64,000 nt of DNA from an uncultured Bacteroidota bacterium (GCA_902783595.1 CACZRR010000025.1:1999-65998), one strand, 5' to 3'; numbered from the stretch's first letter, positions 5,430 to 21,315 are shown. Numbers and translations: made by a program. The notes: generated by a model from the letters alone, not told the origin.

Positions 5430-5450
5430 CCCCCAACGTAAACCGTTGCG

Positions 5451-5541
5451 CAAAACGCAAAACGTCAAACGTAAAACGTCAAACATCAAACGTAAAACGT
5501 AAAACGTAAAACGTCAAACATCAAACATAAAACGTCAAACC
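5451..5541 (+). repeat. Tandem array of 13 heptamers (consensus TMAAACG)
   Basis: CAAAACG CAAAACG TCAAACG TAAAACG TCAAACA TCAAACG TAAAACG x3 TCAAACA x2 TAAAACG TCAAACC. It fills most of the ettA-to-lipoprotein spacer. Confidence 0.9.
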
Positions 5542-5564: not shown

Positions 5565-6701
5565 ATGAAAAAAATCATGCACCTCCTCTGTGCTGCCATG
5601 CTGCTGGTATCCTTCGCGGCATGCACCGAGAAAGACAACGAGAACGGCGGCGACGGCAGCTACGCCTCCCTCATCATCGGCAAATGGAATGTGGACGTCA
5701 TCACCATCAACGGCAACGACATGACGCCACAGAACATGCAGCTCTCCTTCTCCCGCGACGGCAGCGGCGTCATGATCCACAACGGCGTCAGCGAGAACAA
5801 CGGCTTCTCATGGTCCTTCAGCGGCAACGTCATCAACGTCACCACCCACCGTGACGAGTTCTCCTTCACCGTCGACACCATTTCGTCCAGCTTCTGCGCC
5901 TTCCACGGCAGCTACCTCGTCCTCGATCAGGAATACCACGGCGACATACGCTTCATGCTGAGCAAGGTCAGCGGCGGCGGCAACCCCGACCCGGGCGACC
6001 TCGGCATCGGCACCCCCGAGCTCTCCTACAGCACCTCCAACTCCATCACCGTCCATGCCCACGTCACAGGCAGCGTCGGACAATACCTCGACCAGTTCCC
6101 CAACTACTCCTGCGGCATCGTCTGGTGCCCCTCCTGGGACGGCACACCACTCCTGGGACGCAACAACACCATCGTCGCCAACCCCGACTCCGACGGCAAC
6201 TTCGAGATCTCCATCGCACACCTCCAGGTCGAGTCAGAGTACAACATCGTCTCCTGGCTCAAGCTCACACCCACGAGCGACCCCATCTATAGCGACATGC
6301 GCACCTACTCCACCAGCAACGCCCCCGGACAGAACGACACCAACTGGATCAACCTCATCAGCGCCATGCCCACCGCCAGCAGCACCGCCTTCTCCGTCAT
6401 CATCAAGGCCTACTTCGACGGCGACCCCATAGGCATCGGCGTCGTCTACAACACCAGCGGCAACCCCACCCTCAGCGACAACGTCTACAACGGCTTCGAC
6501 CACATCGACATGCAGACCGGCGAGACCGACGCCACCATCCAGCGCATGCAGGAGAACATCGACGGCTCGCGCACCGTGGCAGCACTGATTGGCGGCGTGC
6601 AGCCCGGCACCACCTACCACGTCCGCGGATACATGCAGTTCTCCGACGGCTCCCCCACCATCTACACCGACGAACAGACCGTCACCACATCCGCAAAATA
6701 A
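5565..6701 (+). CDS. Lipoprotein, function unknown
   Basis: 378 aa. Lipobox signal peptide (LLVSFAAC). Ser/Thr/Asn-rich beta-type sequence. Confidence 0.8.
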   Translation: MKKIMHLLCAAMLLVSFAACTEKDNENGGDGSYASLIIGKWNVDVITINGNDMTPQNMQLSFSRDGSGVMIHNGVSENNGFSWSFSGNVINVTTHRDEFSFTVDTISSSFCAFHGSYLVLDQEYHGDIRFMLSKVSGGGNPDPGDLGIGTPELSYSTSNSITVHAHVTGSVGQYLDQFPNYSCGIVWCPSWDGTPLLGRNNTIVANPDSDGNFEISIAHLQVESEYNIVSWLKLTPTSDPIYSDMRTYSTSNAPGQNDTNWINLISAMPTASSTAFSVIIKAYFDGDPIGIGVVYNTSGNPTLSDNVYNGFDHIDMQTGETDATIQRMQENIDGSRTVAALIGGVQPGTTYHVRGYMQFSDGSPTIYTDEQTVTTSAK

Positions 6702-6768: not shown

Positions 6769-6855
6769 GCTCAAGGATGTTAGCCATCCAGCAAACAAAA
6801 CACCTGTTGAGAAAAGTGAGATTTCCGTACGCTATCTTGTGGACATTTTGTCCAA

Positions 6856-6944
6856 TTGATGTTCGATTGATGTTCGATTGTTGTTCGATTGTTGTTCGAT
6901 TGGCAATCGAACAACAATCGAACATCAGACGAACAAGAAACGAC
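6856..6944. repeat. Palindromic array of 11-nt units (TTGWTGTTCGA x4, then inverted copies)
   Basis: Left arm has 4 tandem 11-mers; the right arm is their reverse complement. 12/12 bp pair around the centre at 6903, and the stem extends imperfectly to ~40 bp. Confidence 0.9.
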
Positions 6945-7031
6945 CATATAAGCATGTTGATATTGTCCAAAGAGCAAAAAAAATGGAGGCGGAGAGGTTA
7001 GGGAAATAAAAAAAATATGGATTTTTCTTCG

Positions 7032-7862: not shown

Positions 7863-10800
7863 ATGACTGAGTTCACACATCTGCACGTACACTCGCACTA
7901 TTCGATGCTCGACGGGATGTCGAAGATCCCCGATCTGGTGAAGAAGGCCAAGAAGAACGGTATGTATGCCCTGGCCCTGACGGACCACGGCAATATGTTT
8001 GGCATCAAGGACTTCCTGGACACGGTGCAGAAGGAGAACAAGGGGCGTGGCGAGGGGGAGCCGCTGTTCAAGCCCATTGTGGGCATCGAGGCCTACTGTG
8101 CGCGGCGCACGCTCTACGACAAGGATAAGAACTTCAAGAGCATCAACCCCGAGACGGGGCGCGAGCGTGTGGTGGACCGCAGCGGCTACCACCTGATCCT
8201 GCTGGCCAAGAACCTGCAGGGCTACCACTCGCTGTGCAAGCTGACGTCGATAGCATATACCGACGGTTTCTACGACCGTCCGCGCATCGACCATGCGCTG
8301 CTGGAGAAGTACCACGAGGGGGTGATATGCAGCTCCGCCTGCCTGGGCGGCGAGGTGCCGCAGCTGATCATGGAGGGCGACCTGGAGGGTGCCGAGAAGG
8401 CAGTGGTGTGGTTCAAGGAGCTCTTCGGCGACGACTACTACATCGAGCTGATGCGTCACAAGACCGACAAGCCCAATGCCAACACCGACACCTACCGGTG
8501 GCAGATGAAGGTGGAGCCCGAGCTGGTGCGTCTGGCGCGGAAGTACGACATCAAGCTCATCGCCACCAACGACGCGCACTTTGTCGAGGAGGAGCATGGC
8601 GAGGCGCACGACCACCTGATCTGCCTGGCCACGCAGAAAGACTACGACGACCCGAACCGCATGCACTACACCAAGCAGGAGTGGCTGAAGAGCCCCGACG
8701 AGATGGCGGAGGTTTTTGCCGACCTGCCGGAGGCGTTGGCGAACACCATGGAGGTGGCGGAGAAGGTGGAGGTGTACAGCATAGACAGCGACCCGCTGAT
8801 GCCCGTCTTCCCCATCCCCGAGAGCTTCGGCAAGGAGGAGGAGTGGCGTGAGAAATTCACGGAGCAGCAGCTCTTCGACGAGTTCACGCGCAACGAGAAG
8901 GGCGAGGTGGTGATGGAGCAGGAGGCCGCTGAGAAGAAGATCAAGAAGCTGGGGGGCTACGACAAGCTGTACCGCATCAAGTTCGAGGCCGACTACCTGG
9001 AGCACCTGGTGTGGCAGGGTGCGCGGAAACGCTACCTGATGAGGGCGGAAGCTAATAACTCCGACCTTCGACCTCCGACCTCCGACCTGGAAATCAAGGA
9101 GGCCCTCAGCGAGGAGCAGCGCGAGCGCATCGTCTTCGAGCTGCACACCATCAAGACCATGGGCTTCCCCGGCTACTTCCTCATCGTGAGCGACTATATC
9201 CGTGCCGCGCGTGAGGAGCTGGGCGTCAGCGTAGGTCCCGGCCGCGGCAGTGCGGCAGGCAGCGTGGTGGCCTACTGCCTGTGGATCACGGACCTCGACC
9301 CCTTGCGCTACGACCTGCTGTTCGAGCGCTTCCTGAACCCCGACCGTATCTCGCTGCCCGATATCGACGTCGACTTCGACGATGCGGGGCGCGGCAAGGT
9401 GCTGGAGTGGGTCACCAAGAAATACGGCAAAGAGCGTGTGGCGCATATCATCACCTATGGCACCATGGCCACCAAGAGCTCCATCGCCGACGTGGGACGT
9501 GTGGAGAAAGTGCCGCTGAGCACCGTCAACCAGCTCAAGGGCTACATCCCCGAGCGCAACTTCCCCGACGGTCTGAAGGGCGACGACGGCAAGCCGCTGG
9601 CCAAGCCGCCGAAGGTGAACCTCAAGAACTGCTACAAGTACGTCCCGGAACTCAAGGCCATCATGCAGGACGGTCCCGACGACCTGCGGCGCATGCTCAC
9701 CTATGCCGAGGAACTCGAGGACACCAACCGCCAGATCGGCATCCACGCCTGCGGCGTCATCATAGGCTCGCAGGACATCACCAACATAGCGCCTGTCTGC
9801 GTCATCAACGACAAGGAGAGCGGCGAGGATGTGCTGGTGACGCAGTACGATGGTCATGTGGTGGAGAACGTAGGCCTCATCAAGATGGACTTCCTGGGGC
9901 TGAAAAACCTCACCATCATCAAGAACTGCATCCGCATGGTGAAGAAGCGCACGGGCGAGGAGATCGACATCGACCACCTGCCGCTGGACGACGAGCTGAC
10001 CTACAAGCTCTTCTGCGAGGGCAACACCGTGGGTGTGTTCCAGTTTGAAAGTGCGGGCATGCAGAAGTACCTGCGGGAGTTGCAGCCCCACGTCATCGAC
10101 GACCTCATCGCCATGAACGCCCTCTACCGCCCGGGTCCCATGGACAACATACCCGAATTCATCGACCGCAAGCAGGGCCGCAAGCCCATCAGCTACGACC
10201 TGCCGGTGATGGAGAAATACCTGAAGGAGACCTACGGCATCACCGTCTATCAGGAGCAGGTGATGTTGCTGAGCCGTCTACTGGCGGGCTTCACACGCGG
10301 CCAGAGCGACACATTGCGCAAGGCCATGGGCAAGAAGCAGATCGACAAGATGAACGAGCTGGAGGTGCTCTTCTACGAGGGCGGCGAGAAGAACGGCCAC
10401 CCGCGGGAGGTGCTGAACAAGATCTGGGAGGAGTGGAAGAAATTCGCCAGCTACGCCTTCAACAAGAGCCATGCCGCCTGCTACTCGTGGGTGGCGTACC
10501 AGACGGCCTACCTCAAGGCGCACTACCCTGCCGAGTATATGGCTGCCGTGATGACGAGTGCCCAAACCGACATCAGCCGCGTGCGCGAGCTCATGGACGA
10601 CTGCAAGAAGCACGGCATCGAGGTGGCGGCGCCGAGCGTCAACAGCAGCGAAATGGACTTCAGCGTCGATGCCGACGGCAAGATACGCTTCGGGTTGCAG
10701 GCCATCAGCGGCATGGGCGAAGCCGCCTCGGGGGTGATCATCGCCGAGCGCGAGAAGAACGGTCCCTACCAGGACATCTTCGACTTCCTGAAGCGCATCG

Positions 10801-11735: not shown

Positions 11736-11736
11736 T

Positions 11737-11771
11737 CCACTTTCCACTTTCCGTTTTCCACTTTCCACTCC
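11737..11771 (+). repeat. Five tandem heptamers (CCACTTT family) forming the dnaE-to-GSCFA spacer
   Basis: CCACTTT CCACTTT CCGTTTT CCACTTT CCACTCC lies between the dnaE TAA (11733-11735) and the ATG at 11774. Confidence 0.9.
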
Positions 11772-11773
11772 CC

Positions 11774-12733
11774 ATGATAGCCCTCAACACTCCCGTCAGT
11801 GTCTCTCCCCTCCCCTTCACGGTGGACTTCGACAGCGGCATCGTCACCCTGGGATCGTGCTTTGCCGACGAGGTGGCACAGCGTCTGCTCGACGGTGGCT
11901 TCCGCGTCGACGCCAACCCTTTCGGCACCCTCTACAACCCTGCCTCCATCGCCGCGGCGTTGCAGCGCATCATCGACGACCGCGAGGTGGGTGCCGCCGA
12001 CCTTGTCGAGCGCGACGGCCTCTGGCATTCGTGGCACCACCACGGCGCCTTCTCGCGGCGGAGTGCTGAGGAGTGCCTCGACGCCTGCAACGGGCGTCTG
12101 CATGAGGCACACCGTCACCTGCGCCAGGCGCGGCTGCTCATGGTCACCTTCGGCACCGCCTGGATCTATGAGTTGAGGTCGGAGGTCGGAGGTCGGAAGG
12201 CGGCAGCTTCACAAGACACCTCCGACCTCCGTCTTCCGACCTCCGCCTTCCACGTTGTGGCCAACTGTCACAAAGTGCCGCCGCAGGCCTTTGTGCGGCG
12301 CATGATGGATGTCGACGAGATCGTGCAGCTGTGGCGTCCCCTGCTGCAACAGCTCTCCACTTTCAACCCTCACCTTTCCGTCATCTTCACCGTCTCCCCC
12401 ATCCGTCACCTGGCCGACGGTGCCCACGGCAACCAGCTCAGCAAGAGCACCCTGCTATTGGCTGTCGACCCACTTTCCACTCACATGGTGAGCCCGTCGA
12501 ACCACCACTCTCCACTTTCCACTTTCTACTTCCCCTCTTACGAGATTGTGCTCGACGAGCTGCGCGACTACCGCTACTACGGTCAGGATATGACGCATCC
12601 CACGGCGCTGGCTGTCGACATCGTCTACGAGCGTCTGCAGGGCGCCATCATGACCCCCGCCGTCGTGCAGCAGGCGCACCTCAACGCCAAGCGTCAGCGC
12701 CGCGACCGGCACATACCCCTGCACCAGTCATAA
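11774..12733 (+). CDS. GSCFA-family protein
   Basis: 319 aa from the ATG at 11774. Has the eponymous motif (VTLGSCFADEV) plus TFGTAW, VVANCHK, SPIRH and YFPSYEI..DELRDYR blocks. Confidence 0.85.
   Translation: MIALNTPVSVSPLPFTVDFDSGIVTLGSCFADEVAQRLLDGGFRVDANPFGTLYNPASIAAALQRIIDDREVGAADLVERDGLWHSWHHHGAFSRRSAEECLDACNGRLHEAHRHLRQARLLMVTFGTAWIYELRSEVGGRKAAASQDTSDLRLPTSAFHVVANCHKVPPQAFVRRMMDVDEIVQLWRPLLQQLSTFNPHLSVIFTVSPIRHLADGAHGNQLSKSTLLLAVDPLSTHMVSPSNHHSPLSTFYFPSYEIVLDELRDYRYYGQDMTHPTALAVDIVYERLQGAIMTPAVVQQAHLNAKRQRRDRHIPLHQS
12175..12251 (+). repeat. Inverted-repeat heptamer hairpin inside the GSCFA gene
   Basis: Left arm is GAGGTCG x3 + GAAGGCG (12175-12202). Loop is ~17-19 nt. Right arm is CTCCGAC CTCCGTC TTCCGAC CTCCGCC (12220-12247). 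Read in-frame as RSEVGGRKAAASQDTSDLRLPTSAF. Confidence 0.9.
12470..12534 (+). repeat. Second heptamer element (CCACTTT family) inside the GSCFA gene
   Basis: CCACTTT CCACTCA, a 21-nt spacer, then CCACTCT CCACTTT CCACTTT CTACTTC. Read in-frame as PLSTHMVSPSNHHSPLSTFYF. Confidence 0.8.
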
Positions 12734-12737
12734 ATCA

Positions 12738-13028
12738 TTATTTTCCCTTTCTATTGGGATTCTTGGGGAACCAGCCTTTTTCCACCCGCTCGCGCTGCTT
12801 GAACAGCTCGAGGATGGACCATAGGCTCGAGAAAGCCACGACGCCGAGGATGGTCGAGGGAATGACGGCCTCTGTGAGCAGCGACCCCGCGACGCAAACC
12901 GCAGCCACCAGCAGGAACACCCACCAGCAGCGTGTGCCGAGATAGTATTCCGCCTTGATAACGATGGGGTGGAAAAGGCCTATGCACAAGAAAGAAGAGA
13001 CACCGATGATTATGCCGACAAAGTTCAT
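12738..13028 (-). CDS. Small integral membrane protein (DUF4491-like)
   Basis: 96 aa with three hydrophobic segments and a basic C-terminus. The family assignment is from memory only. Confidence 0.55.
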   Translation of the reverse strand: MNFVGIIIGVSSFLCIGLFHPIVIKAEYYLGTRCWWVFLLVAAVCVAGSLLTEAVIPSTILGVVAFSSLWSILELFKQRERVEKGWFPKNPNRKGK

Positions 13029-18854: not shown

Positions 18855-19880
18855 ATGAAAAAGAATATAGCCCTCGTGATGGGTGGCTTCAGCGGCGAGC
18901 ACGACATCTCGATTGCCAGCGGACGTCAGGTCTATGAGCAGTTGGACCATAGTCGCTACAATGTGTACAAAATTGTGGTGGATCGTGCGGGCTGGTACTG
19001 GGAATGCGGCGACGAGCACAGACCCATCGACCGCGGCGACTTCACCGTCATCGATGCCGGCGTCACGGTTCATTTTGATTTAGCCTTTATCATCGTGCAT
19101 GGCAACCCCGGCGAAAACGGCGTGTTGCAAGGTTACTTCGATATGCTGGGCATCCGCTACACCACCTGTGGTTACTACACCTCCGCACTCACCTTCCATA
19201 AAGGCTACTGCAACCCCGTAGTAAAAAACTTTGGCATCGTCAAAGTAGCCAACTCGGTTCTGCTATATAAAGAACAGTGGGAAGTGGAAAGTGGGAAGTG
19301 GAAAGATGGAATAGTGCCAACCGACTCTCCGCAATCCTCTCTTCATCTCCCCGTTTTCGTGAAGCCGGCTGCCGGCGGCAGCAGCGTTGCCACCACCAAG
19401 GTGAAGAGCCCCGAGGCCCTGCCCGCCGCCATCCGTGAGGCTTTCACAGAAGATAGCGCAGTGCTGATAGAGGAAGCCATTGTAGGACGCGAGTTTGACT
19501 GCGGCGTATTCCGCAATGCAGACGGAGAATTGCTCCTGTTCCCTATCACCGAAATTATACCCAAAGGTGGACATGAATTCTTCGACTATGCTGCCAAGTA
19601 TGAGGGTTTCAGCAGCGAGGTGACCCCCGCCGAGGTCGACGAGCACACGGCACAACACATACAGGCGGTGTCGGCACAGCTCTACGAACGCCTGGGATGC
19701 AAAGGCATCGTACGCTTCGACTACATCCTCGACAGCGCCAACAACGAGCTCTACTTCCTGGAGGTGAATACCATCCCGGGACAGAGTGCAGAGAGCATCG
19801 TACCCAAACAAGCCCGTGCCATGGGCATCACGCCCGCCCAGCTCTACCAGATGAGCATCGAGGCGGCGATGAATAAGTGA
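18855..19880 (+). CDS. ddl: D-alanine--D-alanine ligase
   Basis: 341 aa. GGFSGEHDISIASG, HGNPGENG, FVKPAAGGSS and EVNTIPG motifs. Confidence 0.92.
   Translation: MKKNIALVMGGFSGEHDISIASGRQVYEQLDHSRYNVYKIVVDRAGWYWECGDEHRPIDRGDFTVIDAGVTVHFDLAFIIVHGNPGENGVLQGYFDMLGIRYTTCGYYTSALTFHKGYCNPVVKNFGIVKVANSVLLYKEQWEVESGKWKDGIVPTDSPQSSLHLPVFVKPAAGGSSVATTKVKSPEALPAAIREAFTEDSAVLIEEAIVGREFDCGVFRNADGELLLFPITEIIPKGGHEFFDYAAKYEGFSSEVTPAEVDEHTAQHIQAVSAQLYERLGCKGIVRFDYILDSANNELYFLEVNTIPGQSAESIVPKQARAMGITPAQLYQMSIEAAMNK
19277..19311 (+). repeat. Five tandem heptamers (AGTGGRA family) inside ddl
   Basis: AGTGGGA AGTGGAA AGTGGGA AGTGGAA AGATGGA, read in-frame as QWEVESGKWKDG. Confidence 0.85.
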
Positions 19881-19910
19881 ATAGTGAAAAATTAAAAGTG
19901 AAAAGTTAGA
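19876..19910 (+). repeat. Five tandem heptamers (AGTGAAA family) forming the ddl-to-asnS spacer
   Basis: AGTGAAT AGTGAAA AATTAAA AGTGAAA AGTTAGA, running from the ddl stop codon to 1 nt before the asnS ATG. Confidence 0.85.
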
Positions 19911-19911
19911 T

Positions 19912-21315
19912 ATGAAACGCTACGAAATTAAGCACTTGTTGAAAGAAGACGTGAGCGCCCTTATTGGCGCCACAGTATGCGTCAAAGGATGGGTGCGCAC
20001 CAAGCGCGGCAACAAGAACGTTGCTTTCCTTGCCGTCAACGACGGAAGCATCATACACAACATACAGATTGTTGCCGACCCGACGAGATTCGAGGAGGAG
20101 TTGAAACGCATCACCACCGGAGCCTGCATCGGTGTAGAAGGTCTGCTGGTGGAGAGCCAGGGCAGCGGTCAAGCCGTGGAGGTACAGGCCACGAAGATTG
20201 AAGTCTACGGAGAAGCCGACCCCAACACTTACCCACTTCAAAAGAAAGGCCACTCTATGGAGTTTCTCCGCGAGATTGGGCACCTGCGTCTGCGTACCAA
20301 CACCTTTGGTGCCGTGATGCGTCTGCGTCACAACATGGCCATGGCCATCCACACATTCTTCCACGAGCGCGGCTTCTTCTACTTCCATACGCCCCTCATC
20401 ACCGCCAGCGACTGTGAGGGAGCTGGCGAAATGTTCCACGTAAGCACCCTTGACCCCGAGAATCCTCCTCGCAAAGAGGACGGCACCATCGACTGGGAGC
20501 AGGACTTCTTCGGCAAGTTCACCGCCCTGACCGTCAGCGGCCAGCTGGAGGGAGAGCTCGGTGCCACGTCGCTGGGTAAAATCTACACCTTCGGCCCCAC
20601 CTTCCGTGCCGAGAACAGCAACACGCCACGCCACCTTGCCGAATTCTGGATGATAGAACCCGAAATGGCTTTCTACCAACTCGACGAACTGACGGCTTTA
20701 GAAGAAGAATTCATCAAGTATTGCGTGCGCTGGGCATTGGATCACTGCATGGACGACCTCGAATTCCTCAACAAAATGATCGACTCTACCCTCATTGAGC
20801 GACTGAAGAGCGTGGTGAACACCGATTTTGTACGCCTGCCCTATACCGAGGGTATCAAAATCCTCGAAGAAGCCGTCAAGAGCGGCGTGAAATTTGAGTT
20901 CCCCGTGAGCTGGGGCGTCGACCTGGCCTCCGAGCACGAGCGCTACCTTGTAGAGAAACACTTCAAGAAACCCGTCATCATGATTGACTACCCGAAGGAG
21001 ATCAAAGCCTTCTACATGAAGCAGAACGACGACGGGAAGACGGTTCAGGGCACCGATGTGCTCTTCCCTCAAATCGGCGAGATCATAGGCGGCAGCGTGC
21101 GTGAGGAGAACTACGACAAGCTCATGCAGCGCATCGAGGAGCTCGACATCCCCATGAAGGATATGTGGTGGTACCTCGACACACGGCGCTACGGCAGCTG
21201 CCCCCATGCCGGCTTTGGTCTTGGCTTCGAGCGCCTGATGCTCTTCGTCACCGGTATGGCCAACATCCGCGACGTCATACCCTTCCCGCGTACGCCTAAG
21301 ACAGCTGAATTCTAA
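19912..21315 (+). CDS. asnS: Asparagine--tRNA ligase
   Basis: 467 aa. Class IIb synthetase motifs ([30 protein letters not shown]). Confidence 0.95.

Follow-up and report, generated by a model that had tools for sequence, protein, structure and literature searches.

The window, which is the whole 64,000-nt (64 kb) stretch of DNA analysed here and represents part of its source genome, contains an intact gene of the GSCFA family, into which a long hairpin built of heptanucleotide repeats is set in frame (Table 1). The gene product matches Pfam PF08885 (GSCFA) with E = 5e-83, residues 23-287 of the protein corresponding to profile positions 2-236, and all of the family-invariant residues in alignment A1 are present. 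The inserted block occupies a position where two core strands of GSCFA are otherwise joined by a short turn, and exchanges about 5 ancestral codons for 28, a net gain of 23 aa.

Table 1. Features of the GSCFA locus, a related structure in dnaE, and the arms of inserts in orthologous GSCFA genes.
Feature	Position or locus	Strand	Basis
GSCFA-family gene, intact, 319 aa	11774-12733	+	ORF, translation, Pfam, AlphaFold2 model
Direct array (TCCACTT)x5, its last base 5 nt upstream of the GSCFA start codon	11736-11769	+	Repeats
Inserted block, in frame, 28 codons (E133-H160), 84 nt, in place of a ~5-residue ancestral turn	12170-12253	+	Alignment A1, insert lengths, pLDDT
Left arm, GTT + (GAGGTCG)x3 + GAAGGCG + G	12172-12203	+	Sequence, repeat finder
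Apical loop, ~18 nt, CAGCTTCACAAGACACCT, coding for ASQDT	12204-12221	+	Repeats, fold, loop comparison
Right arm, four degenerate CGACCTC-type units, CCGACCTCCGTCTTCCGACCTCCGCCTTCCAC	12222-12253	+	Sequence, repeat finder
Second variable site of the GSCFA gene, CCACTTT-type heptamers and a small CTCAC-ATG-GTGAG hairpin	12476-12531	+	Repeats, alignment, pLDDT
Partial copy in dnaE, GAGGGCGGAAGCT-AATAA-(CTCCGAC)x4, in frame (…AEANNSDLRPPTSDL…), within a lineage-variable 20-aa insert	9041-9088	+	
Arm unit GGTGAAA / TYTCACC	L002, L164		GSCFA orthologue DNA
Arm unit GGTCAGT	L167		GSCFA orthologue DNA
Arm unit GGAGTTC	L168		GSCFA orthologue DNA
Arm unit GTGATGA	L170		GSCFA orthologue DNA
Arm TTTAGTG-like	L169		GSCFA orthologue DNA
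Period-8 unit	L165		GSCFA orthologue DNA
24-nt inverted repeat, non-tandem	L166		GSCFA orthologue DNA

Within the left arm, positions 12175-12202 read GAGGTCG GAGGTCG GAGGTCG GAAGGCG. The loop of about 18 nt lies in the GCAGCTTCACAAGACACC region and is followed by a degenerate inverse array (CCGACCTCCGTCTTCCGACCTCCGCCTTCC), in which 12218/12222-12251 reads (A)CCTCCG ACCTCCG TCTTCCG ACCTCCG CCTTCC. The repeat finder pairs 12172-12203 with 12222-12253, two arms of 32 nt each that are 78% complementary and 18 nt apart, and slipped registers are equally good (23 nt at 91%, 23 nt at 87% and 19 nt at 89%), as is expected because the arms are tandem. The RNA fold predicted for 12165-12260 has an energy of -52.2 kcal/mol, whereas 200 dinucleotide shuffles average -33.1 +/- 3.5 (z = -5.5) and none of them (0/200) folds as well. 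Its minimum-energy structure has 27 pairs, 25 of them Watson-Crick and two G-U, and the stem is broken by three single-base interruptions. With up to two mismatches allowed, the 14-mer GAGGTCGGAGGTCG is found 10 times in the window, where 0.64 occurrences would be expected; seven of the ten are in the GSCFA hairpin and three in dnaE. The sequence-only reading had given a left arm of three GAGGTCG units and one GAAGGCG, a loop of about 17-19 nt and an mRNA stem of at least 20 bp inside the ORF, all of which are borne out here. It had taken the right arm to be the reverse complement of the left apart from register slips; the slips are found but the arm is an imperfect complement. Likewise, the frame and the peptide (ELRSEVGGRKAAASQDTSDLRLPTSAFH) were read correctly but the block is 84 nt long rather than 77 nt.

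The GAGGTCG unit is free of stop codons in all six frames, and the whole element is open in four of the six. Translational bypass or excision, of the type seen in T4 gene 60 or the mitochondrial byps, was considered and rejected, given that the reading frame runs open through the segment. The sequence 3' of the stem (GTTGTGGCCAAC) lacks the T-run of an intrinsic terminator or attenuator, and a terminator and promoter scan gave no match here; a search of Rfam at the gathering threshold found tRNA only and no family for the hairpin.

An AlphaFold2 model of the GSCFA protein, built on alignment A1, has a mean pLDDT of 83.9, and values below 50 are confined to two segments, residues 138-157 (the hairpin peptide) and residues 238-245 (the second heptamer site). 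A PDB sequence search found no solved relative of the protein, so that it is solely from the pLDDT of the model that the insert is placed in a surface loop, presumably a floppy and disordered one. The same hairpin, with four substitutions, is present in an independent metagenome assembly from another sample (L163, 99.5% identical), and is therefore neither an artefact nor part of a pseudogene.

Among the tandem repeats of the window, arrays of period 7 predominate. Direct heptamer arrays are present at 5449-5540, 11736-11769 and 19870-19906, and start codons are abutted by three direct arrays of this kind. The ddl gene of the window carries an (AGTGGRA)x5 insert, and its L167 orthologue uses AGTGGTC. 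The GSCFA element is the one full copy in the 64 kb, and is accompanied by the partial copy in dnaE 3 kb away, in which GAGGGCGGAAGCT, as read from the sequence, has 11 of 13 positions in common with GAAGGCGGCAGCT of the GSCFA element. At the second variable site of the GSCFA gene, L011 has a full heptamer-armed hairpin. We also note an 11-mer-armed hairpin at 6848-6947.

The insertion site in GSCFA relatives

The segment is in a short form in 131 of 146 parsable GSCFA loci of Bacteroidia, where it consists of a turn of 4-7 residues (such as E-R-E-G-x) flanked by TFGTAWV[YF] and VVANCH. Of the 121 closest GSCFA proteins, at 57-98% identity, no more than 6 aa are present at this position in 71 and at least 20 aa in 19, the remainder being intermediate. 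In the ten insert-bearing orthologues for which DNA was compared, the insert follows the identical codon in every case (10/10), and eight of the ten inserts fold far beyond shuffles (z from -4.0 to -7.1); those of L001 (z = -1.2) and L165 (z = -1.3) do not. The arm units differ between orthologues (Table 1), so that the insert peptides are unrelated with the exception of the loop. A GCTAYGCAGGAC loop (A-T/M-Q-D) is common to several GSCFA copies, and the window has a weaker version, GCTTCACAAGAC (A-S-Q-D); the window loop has a weak resemblance to the GCTAYGCAGGACA loops of the orthologous hairpins. Since hairpins with other units lie at the same codon in relatives, the site is a long-standing hot spot rather than the location of a single private insertion. 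Short arrays with direct repeats only (ERRSESGERR, ELSGQWPVASGQ) are also found at the GSCFA site, collapsed and one-armed derivatives are present at insert sites, and the left arm of the window hairpin begins with the ancestral GAG codon. The tetranucleotide GTTG, which is present at both ends of the window insert, was considered as a target-site duplication and rejected, as it is not reproduced in the other copies.

These comparisons agree with the sequence-only reading that other family members have only a few residues here, and the predicted insertion of about 20-24 aa is matched by the observed net gain. Equally long loops in homologues, which the sequence-only reading had taken, if alignable, to refute its claim, do occur after the same codon in related lineages, but with unrelated peptides, and most members are short. 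A pseudogene, which it had also allowed for, is at odds with the intact ORF, the strong PF08885 match and the retained invariants.

The insert changes rapidly among close relatives. The window and L163 differ by 14 substitutions over 2.96 kb of colinear sequence, and four of these are within the 82-nt hairpin (2.8% of the sequence), where 0.39 would be expected; three of the four are clustered within 6 nt (12195-12200) in the innermost unit of the left arm. The hairpin arms are hypermutable and change faster than the rest of the gene. The array upstream of the GSCFA start codon also differs by one unit in this sister strain. Across the GSCFA tree insert types are scattered, with an identical type on distant branches. 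The presence or absence of an insert differs among proteins that are 90-96% identical, and proteins 94-96% identical may have a 44-aa versus a 6-aa insert or two that are wholly different. Two GSCFA genes with flanks 94% identical contain entirely different inserts with sharp boundaries. L168 is a mosaic, composed of an L171-type gene and an L164-like patch that holds the insert and about 80 nt downstream, which indicates that homologous recombination moves inserts between lineages, in this case through a single resolvable exchange. The differences between close relatives at least partly reflect slippage-type hypermutation and allelic recombination, rather than transposition.

The L164 and L002 elements are 93.5% identical, whereas other segments of the gene have a mean identity of 63% and third codon positions of 55%, and the window element is 75.6% identical to that of L001 compared to 65% for the gene. 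This conservation of the element above that of its host gene points either to recent transfer, with the elements younger than the lineages, or to constraint at the nucleotide level; decay purely in situ is insufficient to explain it.

Heptamer-armed hairpins in other genes

A hairpin census was taken over 172 fetched loci (1.48 Mb, mostly Bacteroidia), and the feature is more general than the sequence-only reading had supposed. Bacteroides spp., including B. stercorirosoris DSM 26884, have a heptamer-armed hairpin in frame in their gene for the bifunctional MurF-Alr protein, with insert peptides such as …FKEVENGELRVESSMQHDGAQPTLNSQLSTLNFLIV…. The length of this site is 17-19 aa at baseline, 34-44 aa with a full insert and 25-29 aa in collapsed forms. 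The murF-alr loop (TCTATGCAGCRTGAYGGTGCGCAGCCC) is conserved across species at the nucleotide level and contains a small apical stem, and the arms covary (GAGAGTT/AACTCTC, GACAATT/AATTGTC, GAGAATG/…). RNAalifold reports compensatory changes at 6 of 28 pairs in the murF-alr hairpins; when the structure is imposed explicitly, 83.6% of cells are paired, compared to 31-46% in slid controls, and five pairs are changed on both sides.

Two ddl sites in L167 also have the hairpin architecture, and one of them has a GGTGAAA arm and an GCTACGCAAGAAC loop in common with the GSCFA hairpins of L002 and L164. Hairpins of heptamer architecture are intergenic in L023, L038, L068, L140 and L158, and the termini of an intergenic hairpin in L043 (TTTAGTG…CACTAAA) recur in those at the GSCFA site of L167-L169. 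Hairpins in three genes (GSCFA, the L167 ddl and the Bacteroides murF-alr) have a loop motif, GCTAYGCAG…, in common, and the loop core GCTAYGCAG…G(C)GCAGC is present in L002, L164 and L167 at the same GSCFA site.

We define a class of heptamer-armed hairpins of Bacteroidales from the murF-alr copies in Bacteroides. The window hairpin has the architecture of this class, with two inverted arrays of 7-nt units, in frame, about a loop (~20-27 nt in the class), and its loop, GCTTCACAAGACA, agrees with the conserved loop core at only 9 of 13 positions. From this architecture, a site shared with carriers of the motif and the 9/13 loop match, it is plausible that the window copy belongs to the class. 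With a covariance model derived from murF-alr only (R1), the two large hairpins of the window come out on top, and the GSCFA hairpin scores 28.3 bits, second in the window, with the loop skipped in the alignment. Unrelated Rfam miRNA hairpin models score the region at 25-32 bits, so the R1 score reflects a long hairpin rather than family membership, and we do not count it as evidence. An nhmmer profile of the loop finds many murF-alr copies, and its matches in L002, L164 and L167 are circular, the profile having included these three sequences.

Three GAGGTCG units in tandem are present in 16 IMG/VR viral contigs, several of them as heptamer-armed hairpins, and the architecture may therefore arise repeatedly; the Bacteroides loop motif is absent from the IMG/VR viral contigs scanned. 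These viral matches suggest a generic architecture and not phage carriage of the GSCFA element. Comparison of 5.8 billion proteins with four concatenated open-frame translations of the element gave none at E <= 1, in a search insensitive enough that known orthologues were missed too.

Selection on the reading frame is evident in the arms. In arrays whose unit contains TGA (GGTGAAA and TTGAGA-type), a variant unit such as GGTTAGA, GCTTAAA or AATGGAG is found exactly where the TGA would be in frame, and this is seen in L002, L164, the ddl of L167 and all of the murF copies. The placement of these variants at would-be stops implies that selection acts on the ORF and that the repeat is imposed by a separate process. 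Pairing behaves differently: summed across 17 hairpins, the minimum energies come to -743 kcal/mol for the sense strand versus -812 kcal/mol for the antisense, with 27 and 52 G-U pairs respectively. The antisense strand folds at least as well, and there is no sign in these 17 hairpins of selection for pairing in the mRNA or of a role at the mRNA level.

Interpretation of the hairpin

The interpretation that we favour, with a probability of about 0.55, is that the GSCFA element is a self-maintaining palindromic heptamer microsatellite, acting at the DNA level and tolerated in a permissive loop of the protein. It draws on the hairpin statistics, the insertion relative to the family, the varied arm units, the hypermutability and the recombination, as well as on the collapsed forms, selection restricted to the ORF, the symmetry of the strands and low pLDDT values solely at insert sites. 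It also draws on the lack of a terminator and an Rfam family for the stem and of transposase, RT and HUH genes in the 40 of 51 window ORFs examined. Counting against it are the conservation of elements above that of their host gene, and the loop motif and termini common to hairpins at different loci. A plausible course of events is that replication slippage in steps of 7 nt lengthens, shortens and homogenises the arms, which, being tandem, could pair in several registers, and that quasi-palindrome template switching within a strand, or repair that copies the opposite arm, makes the arms complementary again. Such arm-to-arm templating would yield covarying arms without selection or bias at the RNA level, and also a clustered triple substitution. 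Selection would keep only a length that is a multiple of three and freedom from stop codons, and recombination would spread the insert alleles. Favoured heptamers could reach dnaE, ddl and intergenic sites via ectopic conversion or another insertion process. No benefit to the host would be involved, with the 23-residue loop extension being neutral, and the GSCFA element is most likely neutral for its host.

The main alternative, possible although we hold it doubtful, is that the hairpin is a mobile miniature element of the RPE or MITE kind, in which a conserved apical core and variable heptamer arms are moved by an enzyme encoded elsewhere and copies survive where they land in frame in permissive loops. 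The recurrence in dnaE, at a distance of 3 kb, of the GSCFA heptamer unit and of a loop that begins similarly would suit such an element, as would the presence of one insert type on distant branches of the GSCFA tree, the conservation of the element well above that of the host gene, and the sharp boundaries of entirely different inserts between flanks that are 94% identical. The loop motif common to GSCFA, ddl and murF-alr, and the intergenic L043 copy with the termini of coding copies, are likewise hints of an element that disperses and keeps its core. However, the boundaries of eleven copies at the GSCFA site reveal neither a target-site duplication nor constant ends, no transposase-like gene is present in the 40 of 51 window ORFs examined, and only a single full copy is found in 64 kb. 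The arms vary from one genome to the next, more than a sequence-specific transposase would allow, the single resolved exchange is accounted for by recombination alone, and both the ancestral GAG start of the left arm and the direct-only arrays fit a local origin. What survives of the RPE-like selfish or structural element proposed initially is an analogy of outcome, the rest being opposed by the same lack of target duplication, transposase (40/51 ORFs) and second full copy in 64 kb, and by the disfavoured mRNA role.

The compensatory changes that preserve the Bacteroides murF-alr stem, the conserved loop nucleotides with their small apical stem, and the identical orientation of the loop relative to the gene in all in-frame copies could all reflect a selected nucleic-acid structure. 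This might be a stem-loop in mRNA or antisense RNA, or a cruciform in the DNA, that acts as a protein-binding, processing or pause site in cell-wall genes (GSCFA, ddl and murF-alr). We regard this as improbable, as presence varies among proteins 90-96% identical, collapsed versions occur, and the window copy is already diverging between strains; moreover the arm sequence is not conserved, the stem has no terminator tail, the sense strand is not preferred in pairing, and covariation is equally expected from templating between the arms. That the insert is open in frame in every case could be read as an adaptive extension of the loop at the protein level, but different lineages have unrelated peptides, and these are predicted by modelling to be disordered. 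An assembly artefact is countered by the independent assembly with its four substitutions in the same hairpin, and a pseudogene by the intact invariants of the catalytic family, so that this group of explanations is very improbable indeed.

We put forward a broader proposal, speculative and with the odds against it, that the window copy belongs to a hitherto undescribed class of palindromic heptamer elements that maintain themselves throughout the Bacteroidales. Such elements would settle in intergenic DNA and in permissive loops encoded by housekeeping genes (GSCFA, Ddl, DnaE and MurF-Alr), with a conserved core and arms that change in concert, and would spread as units through a putative hairpin-recognising or template-copying machinery or via a cis-acting core. 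The hairpins described here would show that long, stable tandem-heptamer structures can live within essential and housekeeping genes of the dominant gut phylum, including MurF-Alr of cultivated Bacteroides, which is open to experiment, and would provide a natural system for the study of palindrome upkeep (arm templating versus selection), of microsatellite spread between loci, and of loops that tolerate arbitrary peptides. Heptamer inserts inflate variation in protein length and create spurious low-complexity 'domains', and in metagenomes they can disrupt assembly and mislead analyses of orthology and recombination.

Comparison with known repeat systems

A full-text literature search found no description of heptamer-armed hairpins for Bacteroidales, and as of 2015 there was no detailed literature on heptameric repeats (PMC4692102). 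Among systems of short dispersed palindromes, REP, BIME and REPIN sequences are similarly imperfect, and hairpins are recognised by HUH enzymes. REPs have a conserved GTAG or CGTC head (PMC3733652). They differ from the GSCFA hairpin, which is intragenic and 82 nt long, in being extragenic, 20-40 bp in length and accompanied by a RAYT gene; the hairpin has no GTAG or CGTC head, and no RAYT, HUH or RT gene is present among the 40 of 51 window ORFs examined. Resemblance to MITEs is similarly lacking, with no consistent target duplication in the eleven copies and no transposase domain in those 40 ORFs.

In the Ripley model, quasi-palindromes are corrected by intrastrand template switching, a process that re-complements imperfect arms and leaves clustered multi-base changes like those at 12195-12200. 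It is a mutational mechanism and not a family of elements, and its action at the GSCFA hairpin would be a matter of inference from such changes.

The Rickettsia palindromic elements (RPEs), reportedly described by Ogata and colleagues in 2000, are said to form hairpins and to lie in frame in genes of conserved proteins. They make up families of 100-150 bp whose members recur many times, nearly unchanged, in a Rickettsia genome, and tandem repeats do not form their arms. The GSCFA element shares with them a palindromic, in-frame and translated nature, a location in permissive or surface segments and the want of an obvious benefit to the host, and it too is an in-frame palindrome in a conserved ORF whose protein is intact. 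In contrast, it is about 80 nt long, has genome-specific tandem 7-nt arms, is present as one full copy in 64 kb and belongs to the Bacteroidota. By analogy, the GSCFA element can be called RPE-like in outcome but is probably not an RPE.

Heptanucleotide repeats are given as the commonest class of long simple sequence repeats (SSRs) in prokaryotes, and are ascribed to polymerase slippage, by Mrazek 2007 as cited in PMC4679880. Described examples include TAACTGA (PMC4679880) and GGGAATC / GGGGAYT (PMC4692102). The GSCFA element resembles these in its 7-nt tandem units, in the dispersal of units favoured by the genome, in unstable copy number and in frequent placement by start codons. The described cases differ in being direct and mostly intergenic (PMC4679880, PMC4692102), and scarcer in coding regions, whereas here the arrays are inverted and form a long hairpin within an ORF. 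Over-represented tandem 7-nt units, together with a unit indel and clustered substitutions relative to the 99.5% identical strain, place the window arrays with long SSRs of this type.

A further case of heptanucleotide repeats is provided by the cyanobacterial STRR. In Nostoc, small dispersed repeats (SDRs) embedded in heptamer arrays were reportedly described by Elhai and colleagues in 2008. Like the GSCFA hairpin, these consist of a structured core of about 20-27 nt between tandem heptamers, are sometimes in genes, and are suspected of mobility without a known enzyme. They differ in that the SDR flanks are direct and the cores form defined, high-copy families in cyanobacteria, whereas the flanks of the window element are inverted and its core is loosely conserved. 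The cyanobacterial SDR cores in heptamer arrays are the closest structural parallel to the GSCFA hairpin.

In-frame heptamer inserts in other genes

In species of Bacteroides, heptamer-armed hairpins also lie in frame in the gene for bifunctional MurF-Alr (Table; there are further copies besides those listed), where the loop is conserved (SMQRDGAQP), the arms covary, and baseline, full and collapsed forms of the site are found side by side across species. In the window, the dnaE insert contains (CTCCGAC)x4 and is lineage-variable; among loci with GSCFA-orthologue inserts, the site is occupied by inserts of 12-16 aa in L164 and L166 and lacks an insert in L002 and L165. The ddl insert of the window is composed of (AGTGGRA)x5 and a degenerate right arm, and the orthologous insert of L167, a further such locus, is built of AGTGGTC units, the unit of that locus's own GSCFA hairpin. 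This pattern looks like a concerted choice of unit that is specific to each genome.

Locations of repeat-armed hairpins, inserts and direct arrays
Feature	Location	Detail
Large intergenic hairpin, tandem 11-mer arms	window 6848-6947	3' of ORF 5565-6701
dnaE (DNA polymerase III alpha) insert	window 9036-9119	20 aa, LMRAEANNSDLRPPTSDLEIKEA
ddl (D-Ala-D-Ala ligase, 18855-19880) insert	window 19275-19345	14 aa, in frame
Intergenic hairpin, 36-nt arms	L002 15979-16078	inner stem AAGCTACGCAG / CTGCGTAGCTT
Direct array AAAACGT x12	window 5449-5540	precedes start codon at 5565
Direct array TCCACTT x5	window 11736-11769	precedes start codon at 11774
Direct array, AGTGAAA-like x5	window 19870-19906	precedes start codon at 19912
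MurF-Alr hairpins	L069 7175-7263; L102 4128-4220; L030 7127-7225; L111 3812-3890	Bacteroides
(GAGGTCG)n and inverse arrays	L174 5200-5330; L185 3000-3200; L187 2800-2960	environmental viral contigs (IMG/VR)

Intergenic and viral hairpins

The intergenic hairpin of the window has the same tandem-repeat-armed design as the GSCFA hairpin at another period (11 versus 7), with arms of (ATTGATGTTCG)x4 against (CGAACAnCAAT)x3-4 (44 nt, 84% complementarity, 1-nt loop). A 9-mer of the L002 inner stem is identical to the loop-core 9-mer of the GSCFA hairpins, a match that may be coincidental or may be linked to the origin of the core. The viral contigs carry long hairpins in which (GAGGTCG)n is paired with inverse arrays, for example of GACTTCT units giving G-T pairs, and the heptamer-armed architecture is therefore not restricted to Bacteroidales chromosomes.

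Direct arrays and strain differences

Colinearity between the window and its 99.5%-identical sister strain (L163) breaks off at approximately 13130, about 100 nt 3' of the DUF4491 gene (12738-13028), and the strains differ there by a rearrangement or indel. The TCCACTT array differs between these strains by one unit. All three direct arrays of the window end 5-25 nt upstream of a start codon, a placement reminiscent of the TAACTGA repeats that have been described in Beggiatoaceae, likewise 5' of start codons.
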